A DNA stretch of 64,000 nt. It comes from Oscillospiraceae bacterium (GTDB lineage: Bacteria > Bacillota > Clostridia > Oscillospirales > CAG-382). A program made the translations under genes and the position numbers. Below, one piece after another: positions 47,306-62,790 of this stretch; the first letter of the stretch is position 1, and the number at the start of each line of letters is the position of its first letter. The stretch spans positions 88,989-152,988 of the forward strand of contig SVSD01000001.1 in NCBI GenBank assembly GCA_015064485.1, in the 5' to 3' direction. The notes beneath the pieces are model-generated. The model had not been told where the DNA came from. It made no database searches and saw only the letters and a list, made by a program, of their open reading frames with translations.

Positions 47306-47343
47306 GAAGGGACTTGAAGCCTTTCACAATTATTGAGAAAATC

Positions 47344-47377
47344 AAAAAGGAACTGTAAAATTATACAGTTCCTTTTT
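47344..47377 (-). terminator. Terminator of the pel-cotH-c-di-GMP operon; diverged GGAGCTGTA-family hairpin
   Basis: ggaactgta / tacagttcc, a compensatory G-C to A-T change relative to the other three copies. A/T runs on both sides. Confidence 0.75.
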
Positions 47378-47395
47378 ATATGCTTCGTATAATAT

Positions 47396-48949
47396 TTATG
47401 CCATCTGAGCCTTCATTTCTTTTTTATGCATATACATGGCGTGGTCTGCCTTTAAGAAAACATCAGTATATACATGGTCTATAGACGAATCGAAAAGCGC
47501 AACGCCTCTTGCTATTGATACATCAACCCTTTTATCGCCAACTTCAATGTAATCAGCAGAAAACGCTGCATCCATTTTTTCGATAAGTGTCCTGTAATTC
47601 TCAAAATCTCTTCCCTTCAAAACAACTGCAAATTCATCTCCGCCTATTCTGAAGATCGCACTTGTTTTAAATGTATCTGTGAGTATTTTTGCCGAGTGTA
47701 TAATAAGCTCATTTCCGACATCATGTCCATAGGTGTCGTTTGTTTTCTTGAGATTATTTATATCAGCCACTATTACACCAAAGGAAGGATTTCCAAGATT
47801 TATTTCCTTATTAAGCTGTTCTATTGCTTCGGTATAAGCTGTGCTGTTTTTTATACCTGTAAGAGAATCTCTGAACGCAAGGGCGTTTATATATTCAGAA
47901 TACTCGCGTATTTTTCCATATGTATCATTAAGCACACGGGAAAGAATACCTACTTCATCTTTCGAATCAATAATAAATTCTACTTCCTGTATTCCGGATG
48001 AAATATTTCCTGCCGCCTTGGTTAGTTCCTTTAGAGGCTTAACAATTCTGCTCGTCACCCAAAATGTATAAATAATCGAAAGAACAAGTACTACTAAAAA
48101 CGCGATTACTATATGGGTAAGCATCGGGCGTATACCGCTTTGGATATCTTTATATCCCGCGCGAAGTTCAAGGTTCATTCCGTTTACAAGAGCCTGTGTT
48201 GCCTTTGTATACTCGCCGTAAATCTCGGTTTTTTTGGATGTATTATAACAGGTTTCCATATCCTCTCCGATAAGAAGGGCACAGCCGTTTTCATAAACGG
48301 AAATGCTGTTTACCCGGTCAAGCAGATAATCAAAGTCCATATTAAATCCCAAAATACCGACAAAATCATCTTTGCTGTATACCGGAAGAACATACGATAC
48401 AACCATTTCCTTTGTAAAACGGCTGGGATGAGGTTCTACCCACGAACCGCCTATCGGACTTTTAGCGTTACTGTACTCTACGAGCTCCTCGTCGGTTATA
48501 AGAGAAAGTTTTGAAAAATCATCTTTGGAAAGTTCATATACGCTGCCGTCTTCCATATATTGACAGTAAAAACCTGATGTTATCCCTGTAAGTTCAGGTG
48601 AAAAGCAAAGATAATAAGAACTTGCTCCGGAAGTGTTATATGCCACTTCATCAAACAGATGACGAATTTTTTCCGTATATTCTGCAAGGTATTCTTGGTC
48701 GGAAAGCGACCCGGAGCTTATAAGCTCATGTGATACGTAATGTTCCATTATAGCTACAGATTTAACAAAATCATTAAGCATATCATCAATTTGTGCCACT
48801 TCTTTTTGTGCCACATTATTTAAAATTCTGTCAGCATCTTTATGCATTATTTCATGTGTTATTGTAACTGAGATTGATGTCACTATCAAAGTGATGACAA
48901 CAAGTGCTGAAATTACAACAAAAAGTATTTTGCCTTGTATGGTTTTCAA
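47396..48949 (-). CDS. Membrane-bound diguanylate cyclase: Cache-like sensor, HAMP, GGDEF
   Basis: N-terminal TM, periplasmic-type sensor, second TM + HAMP (IVKPLKELTKAAGNISSG), intact active site RIGGDEFAV. TTG start overlaps the upstream stop (TTGA). Confidence 0.85.
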   Translation of the reverse strand: MKTIQGKILFVVISALVVITLIVTSISVTITHEIMHKDADRILNNVAQKEVAQIDDMLNDFVKSVAIMEHYVSHELISSGSLSDQEYLAEYTEKIRHLFDEVAYNTSGASSYYLCFSPELTGITSGFYCQYMEDGSVYELSKDDFSKLSLITDEELVEYSNAKSPIGGSWVEPHPSRFTKEMVVSYVLPVYSKDDFVGILGFNMDFDYLLDRVNSISVYENGCALLIGEDMETCYNTSKKTEIYGEYTKATQALVNGMNLELRAGYKDIQSGIRPMLTHIVIAFLVVLVLSIIYTFWVTSRIVKPLKELTKAAGNISSGIQEVEFIIDSKDEVGILSRVLNDTYGKIREYSEYINALAFRDSLTGIKNSTAYTEAIEQLNKEINLGNPSFGVIVADINNLKKTNDTYGHDVGNELIIHSAKILTDTFKTSAIFRIGGDEFAVVLKGRDFENYRTLIEKMDAAFSADYIEVGDKRVDVSIARGVALFDSSIDHVYTDVFLKADHAMYMHKKEMKAQMA

Positions 48950-51075
48950 TTTTTCTTCTCCTTGGTTTTGCTTATTTCCGTGTTTGTTGTTTCCTCAACT
49001 TCTGTGAGTATTCTGTGGTAACCTTCAAGCATAATCTTTTTGCTTTCATCTTGTGTGCGGATACCGCTGCTTCTCACATTCACTATTCCAGCGGTCGGAT
49101 GATTCCAACGATATTCAAGCTGTACCGCCTTTTCGCCTTTTTTCATCACGCCGAATGAATTAACAACATATTTGATATCTTCTTTTAAAATACGGCTATA
49201 CCAGTAATCATAGCAGTCAACTGCAGACAACTTTTCCGAAAGGCCGAGAATATGTTCCATAACGCTGTCTACATAAAGCTCATATCGGTTATTTATTTCA
49301 TCAATACGAATTATCCACAAGCCGATATTATTTTTGTGAAGAATATTTTTCGCATCAAAATGTATTGCTCCGAATTCCTCTTTGAATCGCTGTATCTCTT
49401 CAAGTGCTTTCGTTCTGGCCTTATATTTCTCGCAAGCGGGCAAGATATATTTCTCCTCTATCTCCTGAGCTGTCAGCGGTTTATCGAAAAGATATCCCTG
49501 GAAAATATCTGCCTGTAAAGGTTCAAGTATTGAAAGCTCTCTTGCGGTTTCAACACCTTCGCAACAAGCGTCGATCGAATTTGTCTTTGCAAATTCAATA
49601 ACATTGCTGATAAGGCGGTAATTATAAGTATTCTTTTCTATCTCTGTTACAAAGCTTCGGTCTATTTTTATTTCATTGACATCAAGCTGCTTGAGATATC
49701 CGAGGTTAGAATAGCCTGTTCCGAAATCATCTATTGAAAAACGAACACCGTACGATTTTATATATTTGATGATCTCGTAATAATGCTTGTTTTCATTAAG
49801 CTGTATAGTTTCGGTAAGTTCTACCGTAAGAGCACTTCCGGGCAATTCTGTTTTTTTCAGTGCATTTATGATCTTATCTCCGAGTCTTGAATCATCAAAC
49901 TGAACTGATGAAAAATTGACAGCTACCTGAAGATCGGGGATACTTTTACGCCATTCTTTACACTGCAAAAGCGAATTTTCAAGTACCCACATTCCGACAG
50001 GATCAATAAGCCCCGTTTGCTCAAGAATCGGTATAAATTCGTCGGGAAACACTTTCCCGCGTTTTGGAGAATTATATCGAACAAGTGCCTCTACTCCGTA
50101 AAGTTCATATGTTAAGCTTTTTATCTGCGGCTGATATTGAATTTCAAAGCCTTCAAAGTTGTTCTGTACGCTCTCCTTTAGTTCTTCGAGAAGTGTAAGT
50201 TCGCATATTCTCTGATTTATCTGATCGGAAGAAAAGAATTCAACTTGTGTGCTTGAATTCTGCACAGCATTGTGCATTGTGATATTTACAGAGTCAATTA
50301 CTTGCGATACATCTATGAAAATGCTGTCGTCAATCGGAACTACTCCGGCAAAAACTGTGCATTTTTCGTTCATTCTGCCAGAAATCTCTTCGTACAGTTC
50401 TTGTATTTTTTCCATACCGCAACGGCTGATAATAATCGCAAACTTATTATGCTCAGTATGGTATGATTCCTCAACAAGTTCCAATTCTTCGAAAATGTCA
50501 GCCATTTCACAAAGAAGGCTGTTTCCGAAATCTCTTCCGTGAGTCAAATTGATGTCTGCAAGCGAAGGAACTACAAGCATCATAAGCCATCCCTTACCGT
50601 TGTAAAGTCTGTTTTTTAAATCGGCACGAAGTTTTGTTTTATTCCAAAGCCCTGTGATGGGATTGAACAGATGGCGTAACGCCTCCTCCGACAAACGGCC
50701 TATCATAACATGCGGAGTACCGTTTTCATCATGCAAAAGCTTTCCGCGCGAATTTACCCAGACAGTTTCGCCTTTTTTGTTGAAAAGTCTGAAATTCATA
50801 TCGTGCGAATCCCTTAAACCGCTTTTTATTTCTTCCAGGTCTTTGCAAAGTAATTTGCGGTCGGCAGGATGCACAACAGAAAGAAGCTCTTCGTGTGTAG
50901 TACCGCCGCTTTCCGCACTTTTCAGCTCAAATGTATCGCTGATATGGCCGAAAAACTGAATTCTGTTTTCAGGAAGATCAAACATAAACAAAAAATCGTC
51001 TGTTGTCTGATTGATCGCCGCAAGGTATTTTTTTATTGTCGAATAATCTTTTACTGAGCCTAATAAATTATCCAT
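48946..51075 (-). CDS. c-di-GMP phosphodiesterase: PAS, degenerate GGDEF, EAL, C-terminal PAS-like domain
   Basis: EAL motifs YGVEALVRY, ELTE, DDFGTGYSNL, KIDRSF, EGVE, QGY. GGDEF position reads EHNKF. ATG overlaps the upstream stop (ATGGATAA). Confidence 0.85.
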   Translation of the reverse strand: MDNLLGSVKDYSTIKKYLAAINQTTDDFLFMFDLPENRIQFFGHISDTFELKSAESGGTTHEELLSVVHPADRKLLCKDLEEIKSGLRDSHDMNFRLFNKKGETVWVNSRGKLLHDENGTPHVMIGRLSEEALRHLFNPITGLWNKTKLRADLKNRLYNGKGWLMMLVVPSLADINLTHGRDFGNSLLCEMADIFEELELVEESYHTEHNKFAIIISRCGMEKIQELYEEISGRMNEKCTVFAGVVPIDDSIFIDVSQVIDSVNITMHNAVQNSSTQVEFFSSDQINQRICELTLLEELKESVQNNFEGFEIQYQPQIKSLTYELYGVEALVRYNSPKRGKVFPDEFIPILEQTGLIDPVGMWVLENSLLQCKEWRKSIPDLQVAVNFSSVQFDDSRLGDKIINALKKTELPGSALTVELTETIQLNENKHYYEIIKYIKSYGVRFSIDDFGTGYSNLGYLKQLDVNEIKIDRSFVTEIEKNTYNYRLISNVIEFAKTNSIDACCEGVETARELSILEPLQADIFQGYLFDKPLTAQEIEEKYILPACEKYKARTKALEEIQRFKEEFGAIHFDAKNILHKNNIGLWIIRIDEINNRYELYVDSVMEHILGLSEKLSAVDCYDYWYSRILKEDIKYVVNSFGVMKKGEKAVQLEYRWNHPTAGIVNVRSSGIRTQDESKKIMLEGYHRILTEVEETTNTEISKTKEKKN

Positions 51076-51739
51076 GGTACTCTCCGTTATACTGTATCAT
51101 TGTTGCATCTTCAACACCTTCGATGGCTCTTATTTTTTCCATAAAGAATGTGTCATTGTTTTTGCAAAATACTTCGATTGCCATTTCGGTCTTTTCTTTT
51201 CTCAAAGTTTTGGATTTGATAAAGTATTTGATTTTTCCGAGAGCGCGGAGGATGTCATCTCCTGCGCTGTCCCCTGTGTAGTGAACAACAAGGATATAAA
51301 TCCTTCCCTTTTGCTGTTTGTTGTAAAAAATCATTATCATTGCCGTCATAACAATTGCGGCAACAACTACAAGCATATACATTCCCGCGCCCGATGTAAT
51401 ACCTGTTGTGATCGCCCAGAAAAGATACAAAAGGTCAAGCGGATCTTTTACCGCTGTACGGAAACGGACAATTGAAAGGGCACCGACCATACCGAGCGAT
51501 ATTACGATATTTGTACTGATTGCAAGAGTAACCATAGCTGTAAGCAATGTCATACCCACAAGGGTTATGGCAAAACTTCTTGAATAGATTACACCTGTAT
51601 AAAACTTTCTGTATACAAAGTAGATAACCGCACCCATAATAAGCGCTGTTATAAGGCCGAGCGCTATATTTGTTATGCCGGCACCGTCAAAAGCACCGGA
51701 CTCAAGTATTGATTTTTTTATAAAATCCTGTACACTCAT
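51068..51739 (-). CDS. DUF4956-like membrane protein (N-terminal 4-TM region + C-terminal soluble domain)
   Basis: ..LGMVGALSIVRFRTAVKDPLDLLYLFWAITTG.. GGAGGA RBS 5 nt before the ATG. Confidence 0.65.
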   Translation of the reverse strand: MSVQDFIKKSILESGAFDGAGITNIALGLITALIMGAVIYFVYRKFYTGVIYSRSFAITLVGMTLLTAMVTLAISTNIVISLGMVGALSIVRFRTAVKDPLDLLYLFWAITTGITSGAGMYMLVVVAAIVMTAMIMIFYNKQQKGRIYILVVHYTGDSAGDDILRALGKIKYFIKSKTLRKEKTEMAIEVFCKNNDTFFMEKIRAIEGVEDATMIQYNGEYHG

Positions 51740-51753
51740 AGTCTTCCTCCGAA

Positions 51754-52476
51754 TTAATTTTCATACCAGTATTTGAAGCTGTTCATATATTCTGTTTTTT
51801 CGTAGCAAAGCACATATTTTGATACCGCCGTAAATTCCGATGCTCTGTCGGGAAGAACATCTCTTACAAAACGAGGTAAAAATTCGGTATATTTTACCTC
51901 CATTACACATTTGCCCGGTTCGAGTACGGGTAATGTAGGAAGAGTGTCATCAAAAATATCATAGCTTCCGATGGCTGCTCTTACATCCATATCGAATGTT
52001 ATGCGAACAGTCCCCGCATCGAGTATCCACGGTTCTCTGTCGTAATCGACGATAGTACGGGGCCGCATCATATTACTGACACATTCAACATAAAACTCGC
52101 GGCAAAGCGGGTATTGGCTATGTAAAAGAAAGTCATAATCTCCGTCAAGTATCTTATATACTTCATCTCTTGTGAGTTTTGCCGCTTCTTTGAAGATATA
52201 GCTTCCGAATTTCTTTTTTCGTTCCAGCTTGATACTGCTGTCAGAGCAGTTATAGATACGGATACGATACTTTTTTCGCTCAAGTACGCCCGCATCCTTT
52301 TCATCGTATGCAGTGTTAAAATAGTCGTCAAAATAAAGACTGCGTATCATATATCCGCCCGCTTTTGCATGTTTGTCAAGCTCTAAAAACGGAGGAAGCC
52401 TTTTACAGATAAGCTCTTTCTGAGCCATATCGATAAGATACTTCCATTCGTGTCTGTATCTTTCAGTCTTCGACAT
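51754..52476 (-). CDS. VTC-domain (polyphosphate-polymerase-like, triphosphate-tunnel fold) protein
   Basis: N-terminal RHEWKY (ExExK-type tunnel motif), later IKLERKKK and VMEVKY strands. ATG 52476 with GGAGGA 5 nt upstream, lying inside the last codons of the CotH gene. Confidence 0.7.
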   Translation of the reverse strand: MSKTERYRHEWKYLIDMAQKELICKRLPPFLELDKHAKAGGYMIRSLYFDDYFNTAYDEKDAGVLERKKYRIRIYNCSDSSIKLERKKKFGSYIFKEAAKLTRDEVYKILDGDYDFLLHSQYPLCREFYVECVSNMMRPRTIVDYDREPWILDAGTVRITFDMDVRAAIGSYDIFDDTLPTLPVLEPGKCVMEVKYTEFLPRFVRDVLPDRASEFTAVSKYVLCYEKTEYMNSFKYWYEN

Positions 52477-54232
52477 AAACATCCTCCACAATGTTGCGGT
52501 TTGCGTCTACATAGAAGCATTTTACACCGTATACTTTACCGTTTTCTACTATATAGGAATCGAATGCTGTCTGAGTTTGTCCGCCGGAGTCTTTTGCAGT
52601 TACACGAATGAAATATTGTCCCTGCGGCGGAACATCGAACTGAACGGTAGGTATTTTCAAATCAGTCATTTTTATAATGGGATTGTTAAAAGTATAATCG
52701 GAAGCAAGTTCAAATGTATAGGAGATCATTTCGCTGTCAAAGGTGTAAGAAGCCTCCCACAAAAGATTAGCTTTTCCGTCTTCAACCGTCGGAACACCTA
52801 TATAAAAGGGCATCGGCTTTTCGTAGGACTCTTTATAACTTATGTAATTGCTCTTAATTTCCGGCACAATTGAATTTACAACCGCATCATACTGAACGGG
52901 AGTTATCGGCATATAGCGAGCATCCTTTCCCGAAAAGACAAGCGGCTTTAAAAGCTCGGAATATGTTTTTACATATTCTTCAACTCTTCCGTCCAAAAGC
53001 TTTTCGTAAAGGTCCTCGACCGCCTCGTCAAGCTTTTCACGGTACAATTCGGATTTAAGACAACGCTTAAAAAGGACATTTCCCCAATAGTTACTTACTC
53101 CGTTTTCCCACTCTGTATAATCATTTCTGCCAAGAAGGGCATATTGTCCTCTGTTCAGCATACCGTCAAGGTCCCATGAAAGGATATAAAAGCGGTCGCC
53201 GTTTAATGGGCTGTACATATAAAAGTTTCGGTTCTGGGTATCAACATTTCCAAGTAAAATCTGGAATGCCATCCAGTAAGCTATATTTTCTATATCAAGA
53301 TCCTCTTCGAGTATCGTTTCGATGGGGATAGAATAATCGTTGATTCTGTCAAGCAGGCGAATAAGCTTTGTATGGTCATCATCGCCCTTGATCTCAAGTA
53401 TTTGTTCGAATGCTGTAAGATTGTATCTTTGGTCGTCTTTCAGAACTATAATATCTTCATAACGGTAAAACTCACACAGATTTATTTTGTAAAGATGGCC
53501 TTTTTTATCAAGACCGTGACGCTCGAGCGCAGTTTTATTAAGCTGTTCGACCTGTGTATATATACCGTAATCCTCAAATTTCGCATCATTACCCGAGGTC
53601 AGATCCTTTACATAAAGATGCACAAAAGTGGTACGAAGACTCATAAGCTCGTCAATGCCTGTGAGAAGATCAAATCCTAATTTGTTTCGGAATCTGAGTC
53701 CGTCGCTTTGATGTTTGTTAAGAGCAATTGTCGTCTGACCCCGCCAATCGCCTTTATTGTCTTTAAGCTTAATTTTATAGTTTTTCTGTACATTTCGGCT
53801 GGAGGACTGACCTCTGATTTGCACGGTACAGTTGGGAGCAACATGACCGTAACCCAGTTCCCCGGGTATAAGGCCGTTTTCATCTCCGACTTGTATGAGC
53901 CCGGCTATCTGGTATCGGTCAACACCCATTTCCTCATAATCGTATGCGGAATATGTGTTTATTTCTTCCCATGTGTGGTCGGTGTTCTCAGCGGAATTGC
54001 CGTAGGAAACCGTAAGATACATTGTTACGATCTCGGTATTGTCAAGATTCTCATAAATAAGGTTTTTGTCGCGTATATGTATATCTTCCTCTGTATTTAT
54101 CTCATCTTTTTCGATCACCATACCGAAATCTGTGTCTATCTCACTTTCAAATTTTTCTCCGCAGCCGGAAAGACACATTGCTGAAAAAAGCATCACAAAT
54201 ATACAAATAAAGGATAATTTTTTATTTTTCAT
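52463..54232 (-). CDS. CotH-family kinase-like lipoprotein
   Basis: ATG 54232 gives MKNKKLSFICIFVMLFSAMCLSGC (lipobox). CotH-type blocks ..GLRFRNKLGFDL.., ..NRNFYMYSP.. and ..ILSWDLDG.. C-terminal beta-rich domain. Confidence 0.7.
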   Translation of the reverse strand: MKNKKLSFICIFVMLFSAMCLSGCGEKFESEIDTDFGMVIEKDEINTEEDIHIRDKNLIYENLDNTEIVTMYLTVSYGNSAENTDHTWEEINTYSAYDYEEMGVDRYQIAGLIQVGDENGLIPGELGYGHVAPNCTVQIRGQSSSRNVQKNYKIKLKDNKGDWRGQTTIALNKHQSDGLRFRNKLGFDLLTGIDELMSLRTTFVHLYVKDLTSGNDAKFEDYGIYTQVEQLNKTALERHGLDKKGHLYKINLCEFYRYEDIIVLKDDQRYNLTAFEQILEIKGDDDHTKLIRLLDRINDYSIPIETILEEDLDIENIAYWMAFQILLGNVDTQNRNFYMYSPLNGDRFYILSWDLDGMLNRGQYALLGRNDYTEWENGVSNYWGNVLFKRCLKSELYREKLDEAVEDLYEKLLDGRVEEYVKTYSELLKPLVFSGKDARYMPITPVQYDAVVNSIVPEIKSNYISYKESYEKPMPFYIGVPTVEDGKANLLWEASYTFDSEMISYTFELASDYTFNNPIIKMTDLKIPTVQFDVPPQGQYFIRVTAKDSGGQTQTAFDSYIVENGKVYGVKCFYVDANRNIVEDVYVED

Positions 54233-55685
54233 TATTACTGCCCTCCAGTTTATCTTCGAGAAATTCGCCAAGACGCGAAAACATTCCTGATCTGTCCTCG
54301 CCGACAAGCGGCTGAACAGACAAAATGTAATACGGCAGCCGCTTTGTAAAATAGTCAAGCCGCAAAACTGTACAAACCGCAAAAACAAGCGATGCAAAAA
54401 GGAAGCCGAATCCGTAATATACTTGCGAGAAAAACAGCGATATTATTGTAAAAATCACAGTTGTTGCCGCAAAAGCCGCTGTGGTAACAAGCGTTCCCGT
54501 ATAATCGGTAAAGTAAAGAAGTATCAGCATCAGCATATTTCCGACAGCGTAAATTCCGTATGCAACGCAAAGTGTGCGGAAGTATCCTCGCATAATTTCA
54601 TTGAAGCCCAAAGGAAGCAGATCAAGAAGATATCCGCCGAGCGCAATTACGACGGCTGTGAACAAAAGCTGTTTCAATGCCGTATAAAAAATTTCGGTTT
54701 TAAGAGTTCCGAGCATTTCCTTTTCTGCTTGTTTTATATTGTCAATTGTTCCTTTATCATTATAAAGGCTGTAATGATTTCTGTATTTGGGATAGAAGTT
54801 TACCTCTACAGACACCACAAAATTTACCGTAGTCATAAGGGCTGTCATAAATGCCAGCAGCGCAGGAACATCATGCCAGGGTGCACCGTAAAAAAGTCCG
54901 TGTACCCGTACACCTATATCGGAAAACCACATAATTACGAGATGGGAAAACATACCGATATTCATAAAAAGTCCCGAAAGCGCAAGGGGTAAAAACGAAT
55001 CTATCCATTTTAAAAATGTAAATGCTCCCAAGGTTGTATGAGGAAAATATCTGTGTAAAAGGATAACATTCCAAACAAGCATTACTCCATATCCGAGAGT
55101 AACTGCAAAAAGCAGGGATTCAATTGCGGGAAGACAAAGCCACAAAAGCCATCCGCCGACAATAAGACTTACAGCAACAGATGTCAGAAATGAAAGAAAT
55201 ATTCCCTTATAGTCCTTTATCGCCGAAAGAAAACTCATCGCATTCCAGACAATAATAAGTTCGCCGAAAAGTATGAAGCAAAGTATCCCTTGCAAAGCCG
55301 TAGCTCCCGAAAAAATCAGAAAAATTCCGTAAAGGATACATCCGATAGACAGCATTATAACCGTCGAACCCCAGAACGAGGGAAGCACCGCTTCTTTCTT
55401 CTCTTCAAAAAGCATATCCGCCACATATCTTGTTACGACCATAGAAAAGAAGGATGTAACCGTAACCGAAGCAAGGAGAGTATATGTTATCATACATATA
55501 AGAAGCTCCCTTTGGTAAAGCGCAGTATTAAAAAATATGCAAAGCATCGTAATTCCGATAAGAAGAAGCACACCGAGAAGCATCGGGCCTGTACATATTA
55601 CCGCCGCATATCCGTATGCCTTACAAGAATTCAGCACACCTTTTTTGGCAAATAGTTTTTTTAGTTCAAAACCGATCCCGGCCAT
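54222..55685 (-). CDS. pelG: PelG-like polysaccharide export/biosynthesis membrane protein
   Basis: MAGIGFELKKLFAKKG.. N-terminus and ~12 TM segments. Position after pelF. Confidence 0.7.
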   Translation of the reverse strand: MAGIGFELKKLFAKKGVLNSCKAYGYAAVICTGPMLLGVLLLIGITMLCIFFNTALYQRELLICMITYTLLASVTVTSFFSMVVTRYVADMLFEEKKEAVLPSFWGSTVIMLSIGCILYGIFLIFSGATALQGILCFILFGELIIVWNAMSFLSAIKDYKGIFLSFLTSVAVSLIVGGWLLWLCLPAIESLLFAVTLGYGVMLVWNVILLHRYFPHTTLGAFTFLKWIDSFLPLALSGLFMNIGMFSHLVIMWFSDIGVRVHGLFYGAPWHDVPALLAFMTALMTTVNFVVSVEVNFYPKYRNHYSLYNDKGTIDNIKQAEKEMLGTLKTEIFYTALKQLLFTAVVIALGGYLLDLLPLGFNEIMRGYFRTLCVAYGIYAVGNMLMLILLYFTDYTGTLVTTAAFAATTVIFTIISLFFSQVYYGFGFLFASLVFAVCTVLRLDYFTKRLPYYILSVQPLVGEDRSGMFSRLGEFLEDKLEGSNNEK

Positions 55686-57091
55686 TCGTTTTCCACCTCT
55701 TTATAGAGATCTCTGTATTTTGTAAGCATAATATTGTATCTGAAATACTCATACGCTCGTTTTTGTCCTATTTCGCCCATTTTAAGACGAACTTCTCTTG
55801 ATTCGCATAAAAGCTCCATCGCATCGGCAAGTTTTTCTCTCTGCATAGGAGGAGCAAAATATCCCGCTTTTCCGAGATTGTCTCCCGGCTTTCCGTTTAA
55901 AAGCTCGCTGCAGCATCCGACATCGGTTGTAACCGCAGGACGCTGTGCTGCAAAAGATTCAAGAACCGATAAAGGCTGTCCTTCCGAAATGCTTGTAAGC
56001 AATGTGAAATCAAGCTTTTCAAAATATTCGATTATATTTACCCGTCCTGTGAAAATTATTTTATCTTCAAGGCCAAGCTGTCTTACCAAAGCATAACATT
56101 CATCGGCATAATCCTGATCGTCAACACCGCCCATTATGTGAAGTCTGACATTATCTTTTCTTGCACAAAGCTCGAAAAATGCGTATATCATTGTTTTTAT
56201 ATCTTTGATGGGTGCAAGTCTTACAACCGCACCGATATCGACAAACCCGTCATCTTCTTTAAGAGGAATATTGCAAAGTCTTTCGTAGCTGATGCCGTTT
56301 TCGATAACTCTGCATTTTGACGGATCGCATCCCATATCTATCTGTGTATGCATCGCCCTTGTGAAAAGCGAAGTTACACGGAATGATCTTTCATATGCAA
56401 GATCTGAAAGCATATAAAAGAAATCTATCCAATGCGGTTTAAAAGCTCTTGCCACCCATTTCGCACGGATTATTTCTTCTTCCCTTTCGCGGGTATAGAT
56501 TCCGTGTTCTGTAAGAAGCATCGGCTTTTTCATAATATACGACGCCATCGACGCCAAAAGGCCGCCGTATCCTGTACATATTGCGTGATAACAATCGGCT
56601 TTGGGTATTCTTGTACCCATCAGATAAAGAACCGGCAAAAGACGGGATCTTACAGAATGGAATGTATCTGAAAATGCGATAAAAGGGAAATCCCTTTTAC
56701 AGGTTTCTGTAAGAGTTTCAAGAAAGCTTTCGCTTTTAAGGTATGACATAGGATTTATACGGCGCACCTGATACATTTCAAAAAGAAGGTTCCAATCAGG
56801 CTTGTCCGAGGAAACAAGGCGTCTGAGCGCCTCCTTTTCCTTTTCGTTAAAATGATGGTCAAATATCCCCGAATCCTTTACTCTCAGTGCATCGTCGAGA
56901 AATACCTGCTCGACTTCCACAACATTCTGCGGAAGAGTATATACAAATTTATCTTTGTCCTGAGCTTTTGCACCAATTACCCAAAGCACAAATTCGTGTT
57001 CGGGCATTTCGTTTATGTATTGATGCATCCAGGTGGAAACGCCTCCGTTGATATACGGATAACAGCCTTCCAAAACCAAACAGATCCTCAC
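55661..57091 (-). CDS. pelF: PelF-like GT4 glycosyltransferase
   Basis: GTG start after AGGAG. MRICLVLEGCYPYINGGVSTWMHQ (PelF N-terminal domain). EX7E block EGQPLSVLE. Confidence 0.8.
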   Translation of the reverse strand: MRICLVLEGCYPYINGGVSTWMHQYINEMPEHEFVLWVIGAKAQDKDKFVYTLPQNVVEVEQVFLDDALRVKDSGIFDHHFNEKEKEALRRLVSSDKPDWNLLFEMYQVRRINPMSYLKSESFLETLTETCKRDFPFIAFSDTFHSVRSRLLPVLYLMGTRIPKADCYHAICTGYGGLLASMASYIMKKPMLLTEHGIYTREREEEIIRAKWVARAFKPHWIDFFYMLSDLAYERSFRVTSLFTRAMHTQIDMGCDPSKCRVIENGISYERLCNIPLKEDDGFVDIGAVVRLAPIKDIKTMIYAFFELCARKDNVRLHIMGGVDDQDYADECYALVRQLGLEDKIIFTGRVNIIEYFEKLDFTLLTSISEGQPLSVLESFAAQRPAVTTDVGCCSELLNGKPGDNLGKAGYFAPPMQREKLADAMELLCESREVRLKMGEIGQKRAYEYFRYNIMLTKYRDLYKEVENEWPGSVLN

Positions 57092-57100
57092 GGTATACTC

Positions 57101-58954
57101 CTATTTCAAAGTTATTTCAACAACAGGTTCAGTTGCCGCAAGCAGATATAATCCGCCGGTTTGATGTGTCAAAGTTGCACCCTTTACATTTTCGGGTGTC
57201 TTTTCATTAAACCGTACAAGCATCTGAACTTCATCGTAAAAATTATCTATTGTTATTTTAACGCAGTCTTCATAAATTTCTGTCTTTGCCGACGCTGCAA
57301 CATACCTTTGTACCGCCGCCGAGGTTTCGGTACCCGTCATATTGCGAAGACCTTTTGCCGAACCATAAAGCCATGACAAAAACGAATTGAATCTTTTTTT
57401 CATTTCTCCCCAGCCAAGCTCCGCTCCTCTTTCGGGGTCAAGAGCATCGTCGGGGTGAGTAAAATGGGAATTGATAAAATGCAGATTAAGCTCGGATACA
57501 GCTGCAAGGCTTTGGAAATCATCAAGAATAAATCCTGAAATTACACGGGGCTGATCGACAATTCCGTTTTTATCCACATCAAACTCCTGCATACAGCCAA
57601 ACTGCAGTTCACCATATGCCTCATCGTCAAAATAAATTCCCGAGATTGTTCTTATTTGAGGATATTCCTTTATTAAGAAATCTCTTCCCTCGTCTGCCAA
57701 AAGGTTTGACGGCGGAACATACAAGGCGAATTCTGTATCGGGGAAAAGTTTGTCGCATAGATCAACAAGCTCATCAAAAGCTTTCTTCATCGCCTCTTCC
57801 GATTCCCATATCTTATACGGAAATACAGACATATAATCGCCGTAAAGACAAAGGGGCTGATGGTTATATCCGTGATATCCCAACTCTCCGCCTTTTCGGA
57901 GAAGCATATTCCCGAAATTTAAAAATGTGCCTGTATCGGGCTTTGCTTCAAGCGTTCCGTCTACATTATCGTCATACGATTCGATGGCAAGACCCGTATA
58001 TTTAATACCGTATTTATCGGCAAAATTCAGCATATCCGGCCACCAGATATTTATGTAAAAATCACGGATCGTCGTCTGATAATCGCGCATAATATATTCG
58101 CTGTTGCCGCTCGGTATCTGCGACGGGAAATCGTCAAGATAATATACCGATGCATTTATGACGGGATATGCACACACATCAGAAAGAAGGCTGTACGATG
58201 CCGCATAAAACCCGCGCATTGCCTTTTCATATATTCCGATATTGTCAACTACAAATATGCCTTCTCCGTATTTCGTTCTCCATACAAGCGGGACACCATT
58301 CTCATTTTCTGCTGCTGCATAAACCTTTGCGTTATCTGACAAAACTACTGTCTTTGCACATTCAAACGGATTTGAAAGTCCGAAAGCCCGGCCGCCGCCT
58401 ATCATAAATCCTTCGTTTAGAAAGATACTTTCAACCACATAATACTCGGGTGCGACATCGTCAATCCCGATCATCTGGATAATTGCCGAGGAATAGGCGT
58501 TTGATTCAAGTGTAAGCGGAAACCAAGCGGCGCCGCCGTTATGAACCCACTCTACAAGATCTATCAAAGACCCACCCATCGGGGAAAGATCTGCAAGAAG
58601 TACGATAACTTCCGAAAAGCCTTCGAACGAAGGAATGCTATCCTTTGAAAGGTCTATATCCTTATATCCGACCTTCATATCGTTGAGAATACAAAAGAAC
58701 TCCTCGTATGCGTCAGATGATGCGGCATCCCCGCTGTCACGCAAAAGAAGCGCCTTTTGCGGAAGGACAGAATATACTTCTTCTTTGGTAAAAGTATTTT
58801 CGTCGGGCAAAAATTCAAGCTGTCTTTGAAATCGGTTTGCCTGAATACCGCTCAGTTCTATAAACAGTATTGTTGCAATAGCCAAAAACACAAAGAGTAT
58901 TGCAAGAATTCCCTTGTATTTGAATTTGTATATCCGATGTATCAATTCGTCCAA
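57101..58954 (-). CDS. pelA: PelA-like deacetylase-domain protein (DUF2194-like), membrane anchored
   Basis: N-terminal TM. Candidate CE4-type metal triad YLDDFPS and YHGYNH. Position between pelE and pelF as in Gram-positive pel loci. TTG start is tentative. Confidence 0.5.
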   Translation of the reverse strand: MDELIHRIYKFKYKGILAILFVFLAIATILFIELSGIQANRFQRQLEFLPDENTFTKEEVYSVLPQKALLLRDSGDAASSDAYEEFFCILNDMKVGYKDIDLSKDSIPSFEGFSEVIVLLADLSPMGGSLIDLVEWVHNGGAAWFPLTLESNAYSSAIIQMIGIDDVAPEYYVVESIFLNEGFMIGGGRAFGLSNPFECAKTVVLSDNAKVYAAAENENGVPLVWRTKYGEGIFVVDNIGIYEKAMRGFYAASYSLLSDVCAYPVINASVYYLDDFPSQIPSGNSEYIMRDYQTTIRDFYINIWWPDMLNFADKYGIKYTGLAIESYDDNVDGTLEAKPDTGTFLNFGNMLLRKGGELGYHGYNHQPLCLYGDYMSVFPYKIWESEEAMKKAFDELVDLCDKLFPDTEFALYVPPSNLLADEGRDFLIKEYPQIRTISGIYFDDEAYGELQFGCMQEFDVDKNGIVDQPRVISGFILDDFQSLAAVSELNLHFINSHFTHPDDALDPERGAELGWGEMKKRFNSFLSWLYGSAKGLRNMTGTETSAAVQRYVAASAKTEIYEDCVKITIDNFYDEVQMLVRFNEKTPENVKGATLTHQTGGLYLLAATEPVVEITLK

Positions 58955-59820
58955 AACGCAAGTGCCTCCTTTGTTTTTGACGATAAGTAAATATGGCTGT
59001 TTTCAACTTTGGTTATGAATTTTCTTATTTCATCGCCTTTATTGAGCGAAGCTAAATACTGTATGTTCAAAAGTATATATTCGTCACAAGCCGGCCATTT
59101 TTCGCCCATTATCGAAATAATATTTTCGGCGGAATAAAAGTTTTTGCGCTTTAGTTCATTTTCCGCAAGCCGGGCGTAGTCAGAAATATCTTCGGAAACT
59201 TCAATCTTTTTGTGCATCAGTTGCGAAAACAATTCTCTGTTCATAACTTCAACCTGACCCTGCATAAGGTTCTGAGATAAACACCCCCATAAGAAATCGC
59301 AGTATTCGGAAAGAACCTTCATATCGTTGGGATTTGCATTATACTCGTTGTCAAGCTTTTGAAGCATATAGTCGTTTTCTTTTGATATTTCCACCATCGC
59401 AGTTACTGCATAATGAACAACTTCTGTATCGTCGTTGTTGCCCGCCTTTTGCAAAAATTCGACATAATCTCCCGGATTGTCATTCAAAACATCCATAATA
59501 AGAGAACGGCGTTCTCTTGCGGAATTTATGATAAGCGCCTCTTCTATCGGGACTGTCATATCAGACCTTTTGTCATCTACTGTAATACTTCGGTAAAGCT
59601 CTGACTCAAGCTTTAACTTTTCCACATCAATTTCCGCCGAATCATCAGCGTCAAAAGCGATCTGGAAATGCAAGATCATAACAATAAGCGGTCCCCAAAA
59701 GGGAAGAAAAAGCGCAACGAAAAACATATATTTATGTACCGACAAAATTTCGAATTGAATTCCCAGGAATATAAGCAGGCACACCAAAAGATGCAAAACC
59801 GCCGGTATTATGTAAATCAT
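58942..59820 (-). CDS. pelE: PelE-like protein (two N-terminal TM segments + helical repeat domain)
   Basis: Architecture and position only. No strong motif. Confidence 0.45.
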   Translation of the reverse strand: MIYIIPAVLHLLVCLLIFLGIQFEILSVHKYMFFVALFLPFWGPLIVMILHFQIAFDADDSAEIDVEKLKLESELYRSITVDDKRSDMTVPIEEALIINSARERRSLIMDVLNDNPGDYVEFLQKAGNNDDTEVVHYAVTAMVEISKENDYMLQKLDNEYNANPNDMKVLSEYCDFLWGCLSQNLMQGQVEVMNRELFSQLMHKKIEVSEDISDYARLAENELKRKNFYSAENIISIMGEKWPACDEYILLNIQYLASLNKGDEIRKFITKVENSHIYLSSKTKEALAFWTN

Positions 59821-59832
59821 ATTTCGCCTTTC

Positions 59833-62619
59833 TTATTTCAGTACGGTTGTAATAATATCAAGATCCTTAAAGCGGGGTAAAATAAAATCAAGATCCTTTT
59901 CGGACGCCTGCGAAAGGATAAGTCTTAGTTTTCCGTCTTCCGTAATTCCGAGGATATCGGTAGTTCTTATCTTTCCCAAAAGCATAGCGTCTGCCTCCTG
60001 CAAAGTATGTCCGTTTAAATCAAACTCAAATATTATGTTTGAAGAAACTTTTTTCTCGGCAAGCGCTGAGAAGTTTTTCATACACTCTGCAAAATATTCC
60101 GCATTCATAATACGGGTTCCTTTAATATACTGTTTTTCTATCAAAGCTGTGTTATAATCATACGCGCGCAAAAGCGACATCTGTACAAGGTCACGCAATA
60201 TCTTGAAAAGGTTCACATAATAAAGCGATCTCTGGTCAATGTCGGCATGCCACAAAAAGATCATAAGTATCAACTCTTCACCTCTGTATACTCCTGCGGC
60301 ATACATCGGATACTCGCTTTTAAGCTCTGTGTTTTTCCATATACCGCCGTCTTTAAGCTGTTCGATAACCGGTGCGTATGCATCTACCGAAACAGAACGG
60401 GCAGCAACATCAAGAAGATCTCTTGATGCAACTTCAAGACGGCCGAAGGCTGTATTTTGCTTAACCGAATATACTGTTATACTTTTGTTTTCAAGTATCT
60501 CTTCAAAGGTTTCTATAATTCTCAGATAAAGCTTTTGAGGGGCGACTGTATTAAGCCGTCTTGTGATATCGAATATCTTGCCGAAGCTGTCCTTGGAGCT
60601 TATTATCTGCTTTTTGAGCTCCTTTTTGTCTTTTAAGGTATCTTCGTATATTTCTGATGTGAAAATCAACTTGTCTTCAAGCAGTTTGTTTTGTTCTTCA
60701 AGAAACTTGTTATGATCCTCTTTTTTGAGATTTACATAACCGCAAAGTGCTCCGACCAAAAAGAAGAATACGAATGCCAGCCAGTTTGTCGGTTCATAAA
60801 AAATGGTAAACGCATTTGTACCTGCCGCAATTTTGGCAAAGAAATATGAGATACTCGAAAGAGTTGCCGCCGCAATACCGTATGAAAGGCCGTAAAGTGT
60901 CGCCATAATAACAATAAATATTGTGCGGAAATCAACAATCGCAAAAATCACCGCGGAATCGGTTATATGTATAAACAGTTCGGAAAGCAAAAACAAAAGG
61001 ATAAGTTCAACTGTTTTTATGATAGGAGAATGGGTTGCTATCCAATCTTTGATTTTGTCAAATAAGCCTTCTTTTTTCTGCTGTTTTGTAGAAAGATAAA
61101 GCTCATACTGTTCTGCCAGTTCCTCAATAATCGAAATTTTTGCAAACCAACCGTATTCGCTTCTCAGCGCAGTATTTATTGTTTTGAGTATTCCGGAACA
61201 TTTGGATTCCACAAAATGTATTTTAGCATTTTTATCCAGCTGATAAATTCTTTCGGCAAAATCCGAAAATGTAATGCCGAACTCGTCACCCACACTCAAA
61301 ATACCACTTCCGGCCTTCCAGTTATCAACAATACGGATGATAAGCTCTGAAAGATCGCAAAGAGAGAGGAAATGCATTCTGGAGGATGCGGCTTCGTGCA
61401 TTTCTACGGTTTTTTTGTTGTATATAGCGTCAAAAACTTTATAAAGAAAATCTTTTTTATATGTTCCCGAATATAGATACGGGATCTGTACAGTTTTTAT
61501 ATCAAGCGAATGATTTTTTGTATAAAAATCGCAAAGCTTTTCGTTGGCAGATGCCATTATCGCCTTATCGGTTTTGTCCGCAAAGGATGAATCAAGCGGT
61601 GAAAGATAGAGTATTTTAGTGCCTTTCTGAAGCTGTGCCGAATACTGCAGAACTTCACGCAGCTCTTCCGCATCATTTTTATCGGTAGAATGAAAACGCA
61701 GCCCTGCAGAAAAGAATACCACAAGGTCAAATTCATATGTTTCAAGTATTGCTTTTATTGACGGTTTCCGTACACGGAAAAGCTTTATCTTATCGGTTTT
61801 TCCAAGTTCTCTGTTGTTAACCACCATAACTTTGCTTTGCGGGAAAGTGGTCTTTACAAATTCTTCGGTAATATATCCTGTATTTCCTATAAGCAAAACT
61901 CTTTTAAGACGGATATCCGAAAAATCACCGATAACGCTCCTCTTTCTTTGAACATTTTCTCTGAATGTGACAAGCTCTCTGTGATTTACGACCCGCATAA
62001 GACATTCGACAAGCTCTTCGTCGAATGTTCCGCACATTCCGCTTGAAATCATCTGGAGAGCAACATCCTGCGAAAAGGCTTCTTTATAGCTGCGGGAACT
62101 TGTAAGAGCGTCATAAGAATCGGCGAGTGAAACCGCCTGCGCCCAAAGGGGGATTTCCTTTCCGCGCAATCCGTCAGGGTAGCCTGTACCGTCAATTCTT
62201 TCGTGGTGATATCTTGCAATCTGCGCAGCATACTCGATAGTTTTATCGCTTATATCTTCGTGCTGTGCTGTGCGGATGATCTGTTCGCCGAACACCGCAT
62301 GTTTTTTAACAATATCATATTCAACCGGTGAAAGAGTACCCGGATAATTGAGAATACTCTTCGGAATCTGAAGTTTGCCTATATCGTGAAGCGTACTTGC
62401 TGTTGATATTGCAGCAATATCCTCTTCCGAAAGGGATATTTCGGGCTTATATACACAAAGTTCACAAAGGAGATATTCACAGATCTTCATTACATGATAT
62501 ATATGATATATGCTCTCTCCGTTAAGCTCTCTTTCTTCCGCATCCTCGGCAAGATATTCTGTTTTTATCTTGTTTATGCCGTTTTCCGAATACAAAGAAA
62601 GAATAGGTGATCCTTGCAT
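59833..62619 (-). CDS. pelD: PelD-like c-di-GMP receptor with extra N-terminal HD-GYP domain (HD-GYP / SDR-like / TM / GAF / degenerate GGDEF)
   Basis: HDIGK and HHERIDGTGYP. Rossmann-like RVLLIGNTGYITEEF. About 4 TM segments at roughly residues 545-650. C-terminal RTTD (RxxD) exactly 5 residues before EDGKL in the GGDEF position. Confidence 0.65.
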   Translation of the reverse strand: MQGSPILSLYSENGINKIKTEYLAEDAEERELNGESIYHIYHVMKICEYLLCELCVYKPEISLSEEDIAAISTASTLHDIGKLQIPKSILNYPGTLSPVEYDIVKKHAVFGEQIIRTAQHEDISDKTIEYAAQIARYHHERIDGTGYPDGLRGKEIPLWAQAVSLADSYDALTSSRSYKEAFSQDVALQMISSGMCGTFDEELVECLMRVVNHRELVTFRENVQRKRSVIGDFSDIRLKRVLLIGNTGYITEEFVKTTFPQSKVMVVNNRELGKTDKIKLFRVRKPSIKAILETYEFDLVVFFSAGLRFHSTDKNDAEELREVLQYSAQLQKGTKILYLSPLDSSFADKTDKAIMASANEKLCDFYTKNHSLDIKTVQIPYLYSGTYKKDFLYKVFDAIYNKKTVEMHEAASSRMHFLSLCDLSELIIRIVDNWKAGSGILSVGDEFGITFSDFAERIYQLDKNAKIHFVESKCSGILKTINTALRSEYGWFAKISIIEELAEQYELYLSTKQQKKEGLFDKIKDWIATHSPIIKTVELILLFLLSELFIHITDSAVIFAIVDFRTIFIVIMATLYGLSYGIAAATLSSISYFFAKIAAGTNAFTIFYEPTNWLAFVFFFLVGALCGYVNLKKEDHNKFLEEQNKLLEDKLIFTSEIYEDTLKDKKELKKQIISSKDSFGKIFDITRRLNTVAPQKLYLRIIETFEEILENKSITVYSVKQNTAFGRLEVASRDLLDVAARSVSVDAYAPVIEQLKDGGIWKNTELKSEYPMYAAGVYRGEELILMIFLWHADIDQRSLYYVNLFKILRDLVQMSLLRAYDYNTALIEKQYIKGTRIMNAEYFAECMKNFSALAEKKVSSNIIFEFDLNGHTLQEADAMLLGKIRTTDILGITEDGKLRLILSQASEKDLDFILPRFKDLDIITTVLK

Positions 62620-62744
62620 TTTAAATATCTCCTTCCTGCGAAATTTTATAGTTATCGCATTATGTCATAAAACTATACATTATAATTATATAATGCATTT
62701 ATTAAAAAAATGTTAACAATGAAGTTTTTATGCCCGCAATCGAC

Positions 62745-62776
62745 AAAAAACAGGCGATAAAAATCGCCTGTTTTTT
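62745..62776 (-). terminator. Terminator separating the acyltransferase gene from the pel operon
   Basis: aaaaaacaggcgat-aaaa-atcgcctgtttttt. Confidence 0.8.
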
Positions 62777-62790
62777 CAATATTAGTATTT

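Follow-up and report, generated by a model that had tools for sequence, protein, structure and literature searches.

A Pel-type operon of an Oscillospiraceae bacterium with the CotH/VTC/DUF4956 trio, an HD-GYP domain on its PelD-type protein and genes for a putative local c-di-GMP circuit

What does it mean that the genes for a Pel-type exopolysaccharide machine, a CotH/VTC/DUF4956 trio and several enzymes of cyclic di-GMP (c-di-GMP) metabolism follow one another on a single strand with hardly a nucleotide between them? The question is raised by a 64,000-nucleotide stretch of the genome of an Oscillospiraceae bacterium (assembly GCA_015064485.1, contig SVSD01000001.1, positions 88,989 to 152,988), called the window in the following, in which 10 consecutive open reading frames (ORFs) run on the minus strand from 62619 to 47396. 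Our analysis argues that this block is very likely a Pel operon carrying a known accessory trio, and that all ten genes probably constitute one operon of a Gram-positive-type Pel machine, with co-transcription and translational coupling suggested by the overlaps between them. The genes, numbered g1 to g10 in the direction of transcription, are as follows.

59833..62619, minus strand: g1, PelD-type c-di-GMP receptor, 928 amino acids (aa) (Pfam, AlphaFold model, Foldseek and a 27-sequence alignment)
58942..59820, minus strand: g2, PelE-like protein, 292 aa, two N-terminal transmembrane (TM) helices and a helical cytoplasmic part (hydropathy scan)
57101..58954, minus strand: g3, PelA_DA, extracellular polysaccharide de-N-acetylase, single-pass, 617 aa (DUF2194)
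55661..57091, minus strand: g4, PelF, cytoplasmic glycosyltransferase of family 4 (GT4), 476 aa (NCBIfam and Pfam)
54222..55685, minus strand: g5, PelG, polytopic membrane exporter, 487 aa (PF16933)
52463..54232, minus strand: g6, CotH-family kinase-like lipoprotein, predicted to be extracytoplasmic, 589 aa (PF08757)
51754..52476, minus strand: g7, soluble VTC-domain triphosphate-tunnel enzyme, polyphosphate-polymerase-like, 240 aa (PF09359)
51068..51739, minus strand: g8, DUF4956 membrane protein with 4 TM helices, 223 aa (PF16316 at 1.9e-09)
48946..51075, minus strand: g9, cytoplasmic protein with PAS, degenerate GGDEF, EAL and C-terminal PAS-like domains, 709 aa, predicted c-di-GMP phosphodiesterase
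47396..48949, minus strand: g10, membrane protein with dCache, HAMP and GGDEF domains, 517 aa, predicted diguanylate cyclase sensing an extracellular ligand

The first argument for a single transcription unit comes from the gene junctions. Read from the sequence, six of them are overlaps (13, 25, 11, 14, 8 and 4 nucleotides [nt]) and three are gaps (12, 9 and 14 nt), and all of the gaps are too short to hold a terminator.

59833 (stop) / 59820 (ATG), minus strand: g1/g2, gap of 12 nt
58942 (stop) / 58954 (TTG), minus strand: g2/g3, overlap of 13 nt
57101 (stop) / 57091 (GTG), minus strand: g3/g4, gap of 9 nt
55661 (stop) / 55685 (ATG), minus strand: g4/g5, overlap of 25 nt
54222 (stop) / 54232 (ATG), minus strand: g5/g6, overlap of 11 nt
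52463 (stop) / 52476 (ATG), minus strand: g6/g7, overlap of 14 nt, with GGAGGA upstream of the g7 start
51754 (stop) / 51739 (ATG), minus strand: g7/g8, gap of 14 nt
51068 (stop) / 51075 (ATG), minus strand: g8/g9, overlap of 8 nt
48946 (stop) / 48949 (TTG), minus strand: g9/g10, overlap of 4 nt (TTGA)

All ten starts are preceded, at a distance of 5 to 12 nt, by a Shine-Dalgarno-like motif of the GGAG/GAGG type. In the case of g6, the mechanical ORF begins at a TTG upstream of ATG 54232, but the ATG is the sensible start because a Shine-Dalgarno motif (CTGGAGGG) precedes it and the lipoprotein signal peptide opens there. A terminator scan found no strong terminator inside the block, where the terminator-like hits were weak, with 5 to 8 pairs and poor T tails. 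The boundaries of the block are set by the following elements.

62745..62776, minus strand: 5' boundary, intrinsic terminator of the upstream Acyl_transf_3 gene (62791-63750), which reads AAAAAACAGGCGAT-TTTT-ATCGCCTGTTTTTT
62620..62744, minus strand: AT-rich leader and presumed promoter region, with the Shine-Dalgarno motif GGAAGGAGA before the ATG of g1
47343..47378, minus strand: 3' operon terminator, a 15-pair stem with a T run in the terminator scan

Of the two bracketing hairpins, the scan reported only the downstream one; the upstream one was seen by sequence and fold. Both regions fold stably on the minus strand (−20.3 kcal/mol and z = −5.6 against shuffles for 62735-62790, −20.4 kcal/mol and z = −6.5 for 47335-47395), and in both a T run follows the hairpin. 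Within the leader, Rfam detected no riboswitch, for c-di-GMP or any other ligand, at the gathering threshold, and the sub-threshold small RNA matches are those expected by chance. An original prediction, made from the letters of the window, had described ten minus-strand genes with tiny junctions, no hairpin plus T run among them and a clear terminator on either side; the coordinates were borne out, the internal hits proved weak, the bracketing terminators are real, and the single-operon architecture that it had deduced is supported by the ORFs, the junctions and the bracketing folds. We also considered an origin of the operon from a mobile element or other foreign DNA. The GC content is even over the operon and its flanks and thus lends no compositional support to such an origin.

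The second argument comes from conservation. The VTC alignment was run against one genome per GTDB species and the best 80 loci, with 68-92% identity, were kept (L001 and onward denote the homologous loci of this and the other searches); the counts given here refer to those among the best 80 whose contig reaches far enough, and, as the scan was confined to the best 80 at at least 68% identity, the overall pel-linked fraction of VTC genes is not derivable from it. The loci belong to metagenome-assembled genomes of Clostridia, to Ornithomonoglobus, Blautia, Roseburia, Lachnospiraceae, Faecalibacterium prausnitzii and Bulleidia, and about 65 of them to Collinsella. CotH and DUF4956 were each present in 75/75 loci, PelG in 67/67, PelF in 64/64, and PelD, PelE and PelA_DA in 51/51. 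The order of the genes is identical in all near loci and is fixed across Bacillota and Actinomycetota (67/67). The claim that the trio is hard-wired to pel therefore stands.

How far this holds for the two c-di-GMP genes at the 3' end is a separate matter. In the species-representative set, the EAL gene was found in 0/61 loci and a match to the GGDEF protein g10 in 1/61 (L010). A metagenome scan with the EAL protein returned one locus only, which allows no statistics, and the conservation of the tail was shown via g10 homologues instead. A g9 homologue follows DUF4956 in L001-L003 and L089-L091, and in L089, L090 and L091 the block ends with a g10 homologue. Genes g1 to g9 recur in L001-L003 and g3 to g10 in L089; the neighborhoods of two relatives of g1, with 62% and 59% identity, comprise these nine genes and have unrelated upstream flanks. 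The full ten genes are present in the same order in L090 and L091, with 49-55% identity for g9 and g10, higher values for the other genes, and different flanking genes. Hence, the ten-gene arrangement is far beyond chance and recurs with different flanks; the eight-gene core is widely conserved, and the ten-gene form is confined to one sub-branch of the clade. Sporulation genes (SpoIVA, YunB, SpoVAD, Spo0A) in the flanks of the relatives identify the host as one of the uncultured spore-forming Clostridia.

Taken together, these data bear on the simplest alternative, namely, that pel, trio and c-di-GMP enzymes are merely adjacent and are transcribed and used separately. VTC and DUF4956, with CotH or not, indeed occur free of pel in L085, L087, L092, L093 and NELoc-2 of Clostridium perfringens, the EAL/GGDEF tail is absent from the close relatives L006-L009, and the trio of Streptococcus intermedius is not required for Pel production (PMC12345266). 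However, the stop and start codons overlap precisely at pelG/cotH, DUF4956/EAL and EAL/GGDEF, there is neither room for a terminator nor a strong internal hairpin, the order is fixed in 67/67 pel-linked loci from two phyla, the ten-gene form recurs although its flanks differ, and the S. intermedius mutants do alter the Pel level and aggregation (PMC12345266). In the light of these observations, three independent units are very improbable.

The same eight-gene block was seen in L024 (Faecalibacterium prausnitzii UT1), in L011-L013 (Blautia, Lachnospiraceae and Roseburia) and in L084 (Bulleidia); the proteins g4 to g8 have 52-70% identity with their counterparts in Collinsella, Faecalibacterium, Blautia and Roseburia, and the values for PelD, PelE and PelA_DA are lower. 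For the Collinsella loci (L015-L083), identities to the locus described here are 69% for VTC, 64% for PelF and 63% for DUF4956. Such likeness between an actinomycetotal block and a locus of the Bacillota suggests horizontal spread among gut anaerobes.

Is the combination of pel with the trio new? The original prediction took it to be undescribed, which is refuted by Whitfield et al. 2020 (PLoS Pathog 16:e1008281; PMC7112168), who published, for streptococci and clostridia, a pelDEA_DAFG contiguous with genes for CotH, a poly-phosphate polymerase, DUF4956 and DUF4832 and, for bifidobacteria, a dual diguanylate cyclase/phosphodiesterase gene in place of DUF4832. In their survey, the trio correlates with an extra, probably inactive, epimerase domain on PelD (PMC7112168). 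The link between pel and the trio is thus already published and adds nothing by itself. The locus shares with the streptococcal and clostridial form (Whitfield S4 Fig; SIR_1591-1594) the order pelD-E-A_DA-F-G-cotH-VTC-DUF4956 on one strand, the degenerate epimerase at the N terminus of PelD, a CotH that is secreted or lipid anchored and has an FN3 domain, and a DUF4956 protein with 4 TM helices and a small C-terminal domain. It differs in the lack of a DUF4832 hydrolase gene, which follows the block in L012 and L024 and is absent from this operon, in an extra N-terminal HD-GYP domain, and in the two c-di-GMP enzymes after DUF4956; moreover, the streptococcal PelD lacks GGDEF, whereas g1 retains a GGDEF domain with RxxD. 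By its published description, the bifidobacterial form (Whitfield S5 Fig) resembles the locus in that a GGDEF-EAL gene comes right after DUF4956 in the same operon, so that the fourth accessory gene here is of the bifidobacterial kind, encoding PAS, a degenerate GGDEF and EAL; the differences from that description are the degenerate state of the GGDEF half, the separate dCache-HAMP-GGDEF cyclase and the HD-GYP domain on PelD.

The role of the trio had been called unassigned, and this is only partly true. In S. intermedius, SIR_1592-1594 were deleted gene by gene and Pel production persisted, with more Pel in the DUF4956 mutant and less in the CotH mutant; in artificial sputum medium, the aggregation of both mutants fell by more than half (PMC12345266). 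The amount of Pel and aggregation are therefore altered by the deletions. The DUF4832 protein of this organism is an active Pel hydrolase, its CotH is predicted to be secreted, and the authors speculate on phosphate metabolism for the accessory genes (PMC12345266). The suggestion, made from the letters of the locus, that the trio may act as a phosphate-polymer or phosphorylation module agrees with this published speculation.

We now turn to the single proteins of the Pel core. The strongest assignments are those of g3 to g5. PelA_DA (g3) matches DUF2194 in Pfam at 7.9e-141 (470 bits) and, in a phmmer search, 9ZAU, the crystal structure of Bacillus cereus PelA_DA, at 5.2e-58; it has an N-terminal TM helix and no hydrolase domain. 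PelF (g4) reaches 314 bits with the NCBIfam PelF equivalog NF038011 (cutoff 100) and contains an N-terminal DUF3492 and a Glycos_transf_1 domain in Pfam; its single sequence matched nothing in the PDB at 1e-10. PelG (g5) matches PF16933 over its full length (2.2e-132, 442.7 bits) and has multiple TM segments. A homologue of g2 lies between pelD and pelA_DA in 51/51 loci that reach that far. As judged from the predicted proteins, the core gene set is that of a Gram-positive pelDEA_DAFG locus in its PelF, PelG, PelA_DA and PelD. The families named in the original prediction for PelA_DA, PelF, PelG, CotH, VTC, DUF4956, EAL and GGDEF were confirmed, but g1 encodes more than an ordinary PelD: its N-terminal HD-GYP domain had been missed.

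The product of g1 has, in this order, an HD-GYP domain, a degenerate epimerase-like domain of the short-chain dehydrogenase/reductase (SDR) type, 4 TM helices (aa 527-631 by hydropathy scan and model), a long coiled coil, a GAF domain and a short degenerate GGDEF domain. Its three main modules are the following.

61975..62517, minus strand: HD-GYP phosphodiesterase domain of g1, aa 35-215 (phmmer against the PDB, motif alignment)
61075..61908, minus strand: degenerate SDR/epimerase-like domain of g1, aa ~238-515 (Foldseek on the AlphaFold model)
59836..60540, minus strand: GAF and degenerate GGDEF receptor module of g1, aa ~694-928 (separate model, Foldseek; I-site R885-x-x-D888)

A separate model of aa 685-928 (predicted local distance difference test score 79) matched, in Foldseek, the GAF-GGDEF protein Dcsbis (4zmu, 7e-7) and PelD of Pseudomonas aeruginosa (158-CT, 4etz_B, 3e-5); with the model of the whole protein the epimerase matches dominated, and the GAF-GGDEF/PelD fold emerged only from the part. 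Furthermore, R885 and D888, which form an RxxD at the position of the I-site, are invariant in the alignment of 27 full-length homologues with 59-79% identity. With its TM region, GAF domain and degenerate GGDEF domain with a predicted RxxD c-di-GMP binding site, g1 is, according to the models, a PelD. The epimerase-like domain has Foldseek TM-scores of ~0.7 to UDP-sugar 4-epimerases and dehydratases and a weak sequence match to 3m2p, and an invariant G245-N-T-x-Y stands in the 27 sequences where the Rossmann GxxGxxG would be. It resembles the "inactive epimerase" of the extended PelD proteins described by Whitfield et al. 2020 (PMC7112168).

Nothing in the locus is less expected than the HD-GYP domain in front of this PelD. 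Pfam reports HD_5 at 2.4e-26, and the best matches in the PDB by phmmer are PmGH (4mcw, 5.8e-30), V-cGAP3 (5z7c) and PA4781 (4r8z), the latter two also at ~1e-30; all are active enzymes. The motifs HDIGK, KKH, HHERxDGTGYP and DxxDALTSxRxYK align with PmGH (4mcw), the metal-binding and signature residues of HD-GYP phosphodiesterases (HD...H...HHE...DGxGYP...D) are all present, and E35, H39, H78, D79, H107, H138, H139, D143, G144, G146, Y147, P148 and D167 are invariant in 27/27 homologues. Given that g1 already contains two degenerate enzyme domains, GGDEF and epimerase, its HD-GYP domain might also be a catalytically inactive sensor or interaction domain and no working phosphodiesterase, and one of the weak matches to g1 is 3tm8, which we take to be Bd1817, an inactive HD-GYP protein. 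Such a loss of activity is hard to reconcile with the conservation of the residues matched to the PmGH signature, which do not vary among 27 homologues with identities as low as 59%, and with the activity of the enzymes behind the top matches 4mcw, 5z7c and 4r8z; we regard an inactive domain as doubtful, though it is not far-fetched.

In other genera, the match to PelD begins only at approximately residue 240 of g1, and these PelD proteins thus have the epimerase-like domain and no HD-GYP. Among the 51 loci, the HD-GYP domain is present on PelD in just two (L006 and L007), which lack the EAL/GGDEF tail. The form of g1 with ~928 aa makes up more than 120 protein clusters. Database records name the family just "HD domain-containing protein." In Whitfield et al. 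2020, in its companion paper and in the listed entries of the top-ranked later Pel literature, we found no mention of an HD-GYP domain fused to PelD, and the fusion appears to be new.

How, then, might the machine be controlled? In g9, Pfam finds EAL (1.3e-59), PAS_3 and a weak GGDEF; the motifs EAL, DDFGTGYS, EGVE and QG are present and the GGDEF motif is absent. With the GGDEF half degenerate, g9 is predicted to be a phosphodiesterase only. The GGDEF domain of g10 has its motif intact (GGDEF 5.7e-26, with dCache_1 and HAMP); two TM helices flank the dCache sensor, and the autoinhibitory RxxD is absent. A phosphodiesterase-only gene for PAS, degenerate GGDEF and EAL together with a separate sensor cyclase at the 3' end appears to go beyond published pel loci. 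A functional precedent is B. cereus ATCC 10987, in which c-di-GMP binding by PelD and the reciprocal action of a cyclase and a phosphodiesterase set the Pel output (PMC7112168). Its pelDEA_DAFG encodes the same core machine (PelA_DA, 5e-58 to 9ZAU), but CdgF and CdgE are unlinked to it, its PelD has neither epimerase nor HD-GYP domain and there is no trio; in the locus described here, the whole putative circuit lies within the operon.

By homology with studied systems, and for the Pel core with high confidence, we picture the machine as follows. PelF would polymerize the sugar chain in the cytoplasm, PelG would export it, PelE would scaffold the complex, and PelA_DA would partly de-N-acetylate the polymer outside the cell. 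Once c-di-GMP is bound at RxxD in its degenerate GGDEF domain, PelD would activate the machine. The dCache-HAMP-GGDEF protein g10 may make c-di-GMP upon perception of an outside ligand, the PAS-EAL protein g9 may linearize it, and the HD-GYP domain on PelD may remove c-di-GMP or pGpG directly at the synthase. A maker, a receptor and two breakers of c-di-GMP, co-expressed with the synthase, would constitute a self-limiting and probably local circuit. That the operon encodes such a local c-di-GMP circuit is, on the domain predictions, rather more probable than improbable.

Several observations weigh against the picture of one Pel operon with its own control circuit. Neither g1 alone nor the profile of 27 sequences gave a match to PelD in the PDB, and PelD was recognized by its fold only. 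For g2, no family match was obtained in Pfam or NCBIfam, and its designation as PelE, with which it fits, is by position and topology only. Family searches revealed neither a UDP-N-acetylglucosamine 4-epimerase nor a Pel hydrolase (DUF4832 or PelA_H) in the ten-gene operon. Internal promoters within the coding sequence may exist. L006-L009 have the HD-GYP-PelD and/or the trio without the tail, so that the tail is dispensable for the core. Last, Whitfield et al. caution that divergent loci may produce another polymer (PMC7112168).

The last point leads to the possibility that the backbone made by PelF and PelG is phosphorylated by the trio or linked to polyphosphate, yielding a charged matrix unlike the cationic Pel. 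Apart from this published warning (PMC7112168), the strict linkage of the trio to the PelD subtype with the degenerate epimerase and the lack of a Pel hydrolase in the operon could be taken in this sense. But S. intermedius, which has the same accessory genes, produces a polymer rich in N-acetylgalactosamine (GalNAc) that is recognized by anti-(GalNAc)3 and cut by PelA_H of P. aeruginosa, and trio mutants still make it (PMC12345266). In addition, g4 exceeds the PelF equivalog cutoff threefold. A polymer other than Pel is accordingly judged unlikely, and we retain the designation as a Pel operon.

What does the trio contribute to the Pel operon? Its genes follow pelG immediately and on its strand, CotH first, then VTC and DUF4956, and co-occur here with a PelD that bears the N-terminal degenerate epimerase domain. 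The CotH protein (g6) matches Pfam PF08757 at 1.2e-66. While phmmer with the single sequence gave no match in the PDB, a profile of 13 CotH sequences, which was needed for this purpose, matched B. cereus CotH (5jd9) at 2e-15, with GNxD and WDxD invariant (N329, D331, D354 and D356). The C terminus contains an FN3-like domain (profile match to 1wf5 at 0.011). The N terminus, MKNKKLSFICIFVMLFSAMCLSGC, has an LSGC lipobox, of which SGC is kept in the family consensus, and g6 should therefore lie on the outer face of the membrane. It shares with the Bacillus spore-coat kinase CotH (5jd9) the family, the catalytic-loop motif and the metal-binding Asp motif, and differs from it by the lipoprotein signal peptide, the C-terminal FN3 and the context of a polysaccharide operon instead of a spore coat. 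CotH homologues are also present in the non-sporulating Collinsella and streptococci.

The second member, g7, contains only a VTC domain (PF09359, 3e-31) and no TM helix. Its profile matches the catalytic domain of yeast Vtc4 (3g3q) at 1.8e-10, with SLYFD, RxR, YxR, LEVK and SK(Y/F) aligned, and R8, E10, K12, K69, R71, R73, K96, Y145, R147, R158, E193, K195 and K220 are invariant in 37 VTC sequences. The third member, g8, has a C-terminal domain of ~70 aa after its TM helices; the likeness of the DUF4956 protein to MgtC or ACT that is claimed in PMC12345266 was not reproduced with Pfam at E <= 1. VTC and DUF4956 are adjacent or close in 75/75 near loci and in 6 distant ones. This pairing of a tunnel enzyme with a small polytopic membrane protein encoded beside it, together with the aligned tunnel residues, recalls the eukaryotic VTC complex (3g3q, 8i6v), which couples synthesis to membrane translocation. 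On the other hand, g7 lacks both an SPX domain and fused TM helices, its partner in the membrane, DUF4956, is a protein of its own, and DUF4956 showed no detectable similarity to other Pfam families and thus none to the Vtc TM domain. The relation of g7 and g8 to the eukaryotic VTC complex is one of analogy, not membership.

Many VTC homologues (P0138, P0143, P0164, P0213, P0252 and others) carry N-terminal extensions of 140-400 aa, which are rich in P, Q, R and K and without Pfam match. We asked if the long homologues (360-620 aa) are DUF4956-VTC fusions and rejected this, as their extensions are disordered, basic, of low complexity and unlike any protein of the window. In L093 (2059-3348), such an N-terminally extended VTC protein adjoins DUF4956, and both CotH and pel genes are absent.

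The trio also exists outside pel loci. Six distant VTC loci were sampled by hand, one of which (L094) was too short to be informative. In L087 and L085 (the latter only 4.5 kb), CotH, VTC and DUF4956 are found without pel genes and CotH is fused to LTD, Fn3_assoc and CHB_HEX_C; L092, likely from a Gram-negative context, has the three genes without pel as well. The CotH proteins of these stand-alone modules (L085, L087 and L092) have 814-1044 aa with lamin-tail, Fn3_assoc, CHB_HEX_C or NosD/beta-helix fusions, which points to cell-surface glycans as possible targets. In C. perfringens NELoc-2, VTC, a 226-aa membrane protein and CotH lie beside a chitin-synthase-like gene (PMC2879425). In L088, with a VTC of 35% identity, the linkage to pel is still present. 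The mBio 2025 paper holds that the three genes occur in synteny only at Pel loci (PMC12345266); the pel-free trios of L085, L087 and L092 contradict this statement. What stays constant is the pair of VTC and DUF4956, which CotH often joins as a third member; linkage to pel characterizes one branch. On the long-read contig of L088 (5374-7768), pelF and pelG are broken into several short ORFs, either by pseudogenization or by assembly indels.

From this we tentatively propose, with low confidence, that VTC and DUF4956 constitute a unit at the membrane for the production or handling of a phosphate polymer or a phosphoryl donor, and that CotH phosphorylates polymer or wall targets outside the cell, whereby it would tune the amount or adhesiveness of Pel and not be required for its synthesis. 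Such a tuning role is consistent with the modulatory phenotypes in S. intermedius. It has to be held against the proposal that no bacterial PF09359 protein shown to make polyphosphate was found in the literature. A more far-reaching version, which is speculative and rather unlikely to be correct, is a trans-membrane phosphorylation device in which VTC builds the chain from nucleoside triphosphates, DUF4956 passes it through the membrane in the manner of the eukaryotic VTC complex and CotH uses it outside the cell, where ATP is lacking, to phosphorylate Pel or the wall; it draws its support from the proximity of VTC and DUF4956 everywhere examined, from the lipobox or secretion of CotH and from the conservation of the catalytic residues in both enzymes. 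Were it true, bacteria would have their own equivalent of the VTC complex, joined to an extracellular kinase that needs no ATP; in this clade, it would be expressed together with a PelD receptor able to degrade the very ligand it binds by means of its HD-GYP domain.

The CotH proteins characterized to date are protein Ser/Tyr kinases, and this counts in favor of another function, in which CotH phosphorylates proteins of the Pel machine or the wall, VTC and DUF4956 act as a sensor of the phosphate or energy status, and the polymer is left unmodified. For this view, whose part on protein phosphorylation by CotH goes back to Whitfield et al. 2020, speaks also that the DUF4956 and CotH mutants of S. 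intermedius shift Pel in opposite directions, which looks regulatory, and that the C terminus of the S. intermedius DUF4956 protein is predicted in the mBio paper to be an ACT-type domain for small ligands inside the cell (PMC12345266). However, CotH is a lipoprotein here and predicted to be secreted in the streptococcus, and is therefore apart from the cytoplasmic PelF, PelD and ATP; moreover, the fusion of stand-alone trio CotH to LTD, CHB_HEX_C, Fn3_assoc and beta-helix domains points to polymer targets at the surface. Protein phosphorylation is a possibility to be taken seriously, if not a probable one. The existence of an invariant VTC-DUF4956 pair away from pel narrows the range of functions to be considered for the trio.

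The architecture is common in uncultured gut Clostridia and its eight-gene block is shared with gut genera; in view of this and of the more than 120 protein clusters, Pel-type matrices may be widespread in the human gut microbiota. With genes for synthesis, reception and breakdown of c-di-GMP in what is presumably a single transcription unit, and with the receptor fused to one of the degrading domains, the HD-GYP-PelD together with the operon cyclase and the EAL protein is a compact candidate for the study of local c-di-GMP signaling.

The gene directly upstream of the operon (62791-63750, minus strand), from which it is separated by the terminator described above, encodes a membrane acyltransferase (Acyl_transf_3, 2.5e-23). 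The acyltransferase is absent from that position in L001 and L003; a role in acylation of the polymer is possible but unsupported. Elsewhere in the window, two ORFs, at 15458-19531 (minus strand, 1357 aa) and 12095-14239 (plus strand, 714 aa), had no Pfam match at E <= 1e-5. An ordinary thiamine pyrophosphate (TPP) riboswitch (45211-45333, minus strand; 77 bits, above gathering) lies directly upstream of an ORF for a ThiT/YuaJ-type thiamine transporter (44523-45170, minus strand). About 270 nt past the 3' end of the operon and convergent with it is a tRNA gene (47012-47084, plus strand) with its own strong terminator (47087-47123), and four further tRNA genes are located in the window at 6561, 8112, 9613 and 27382.

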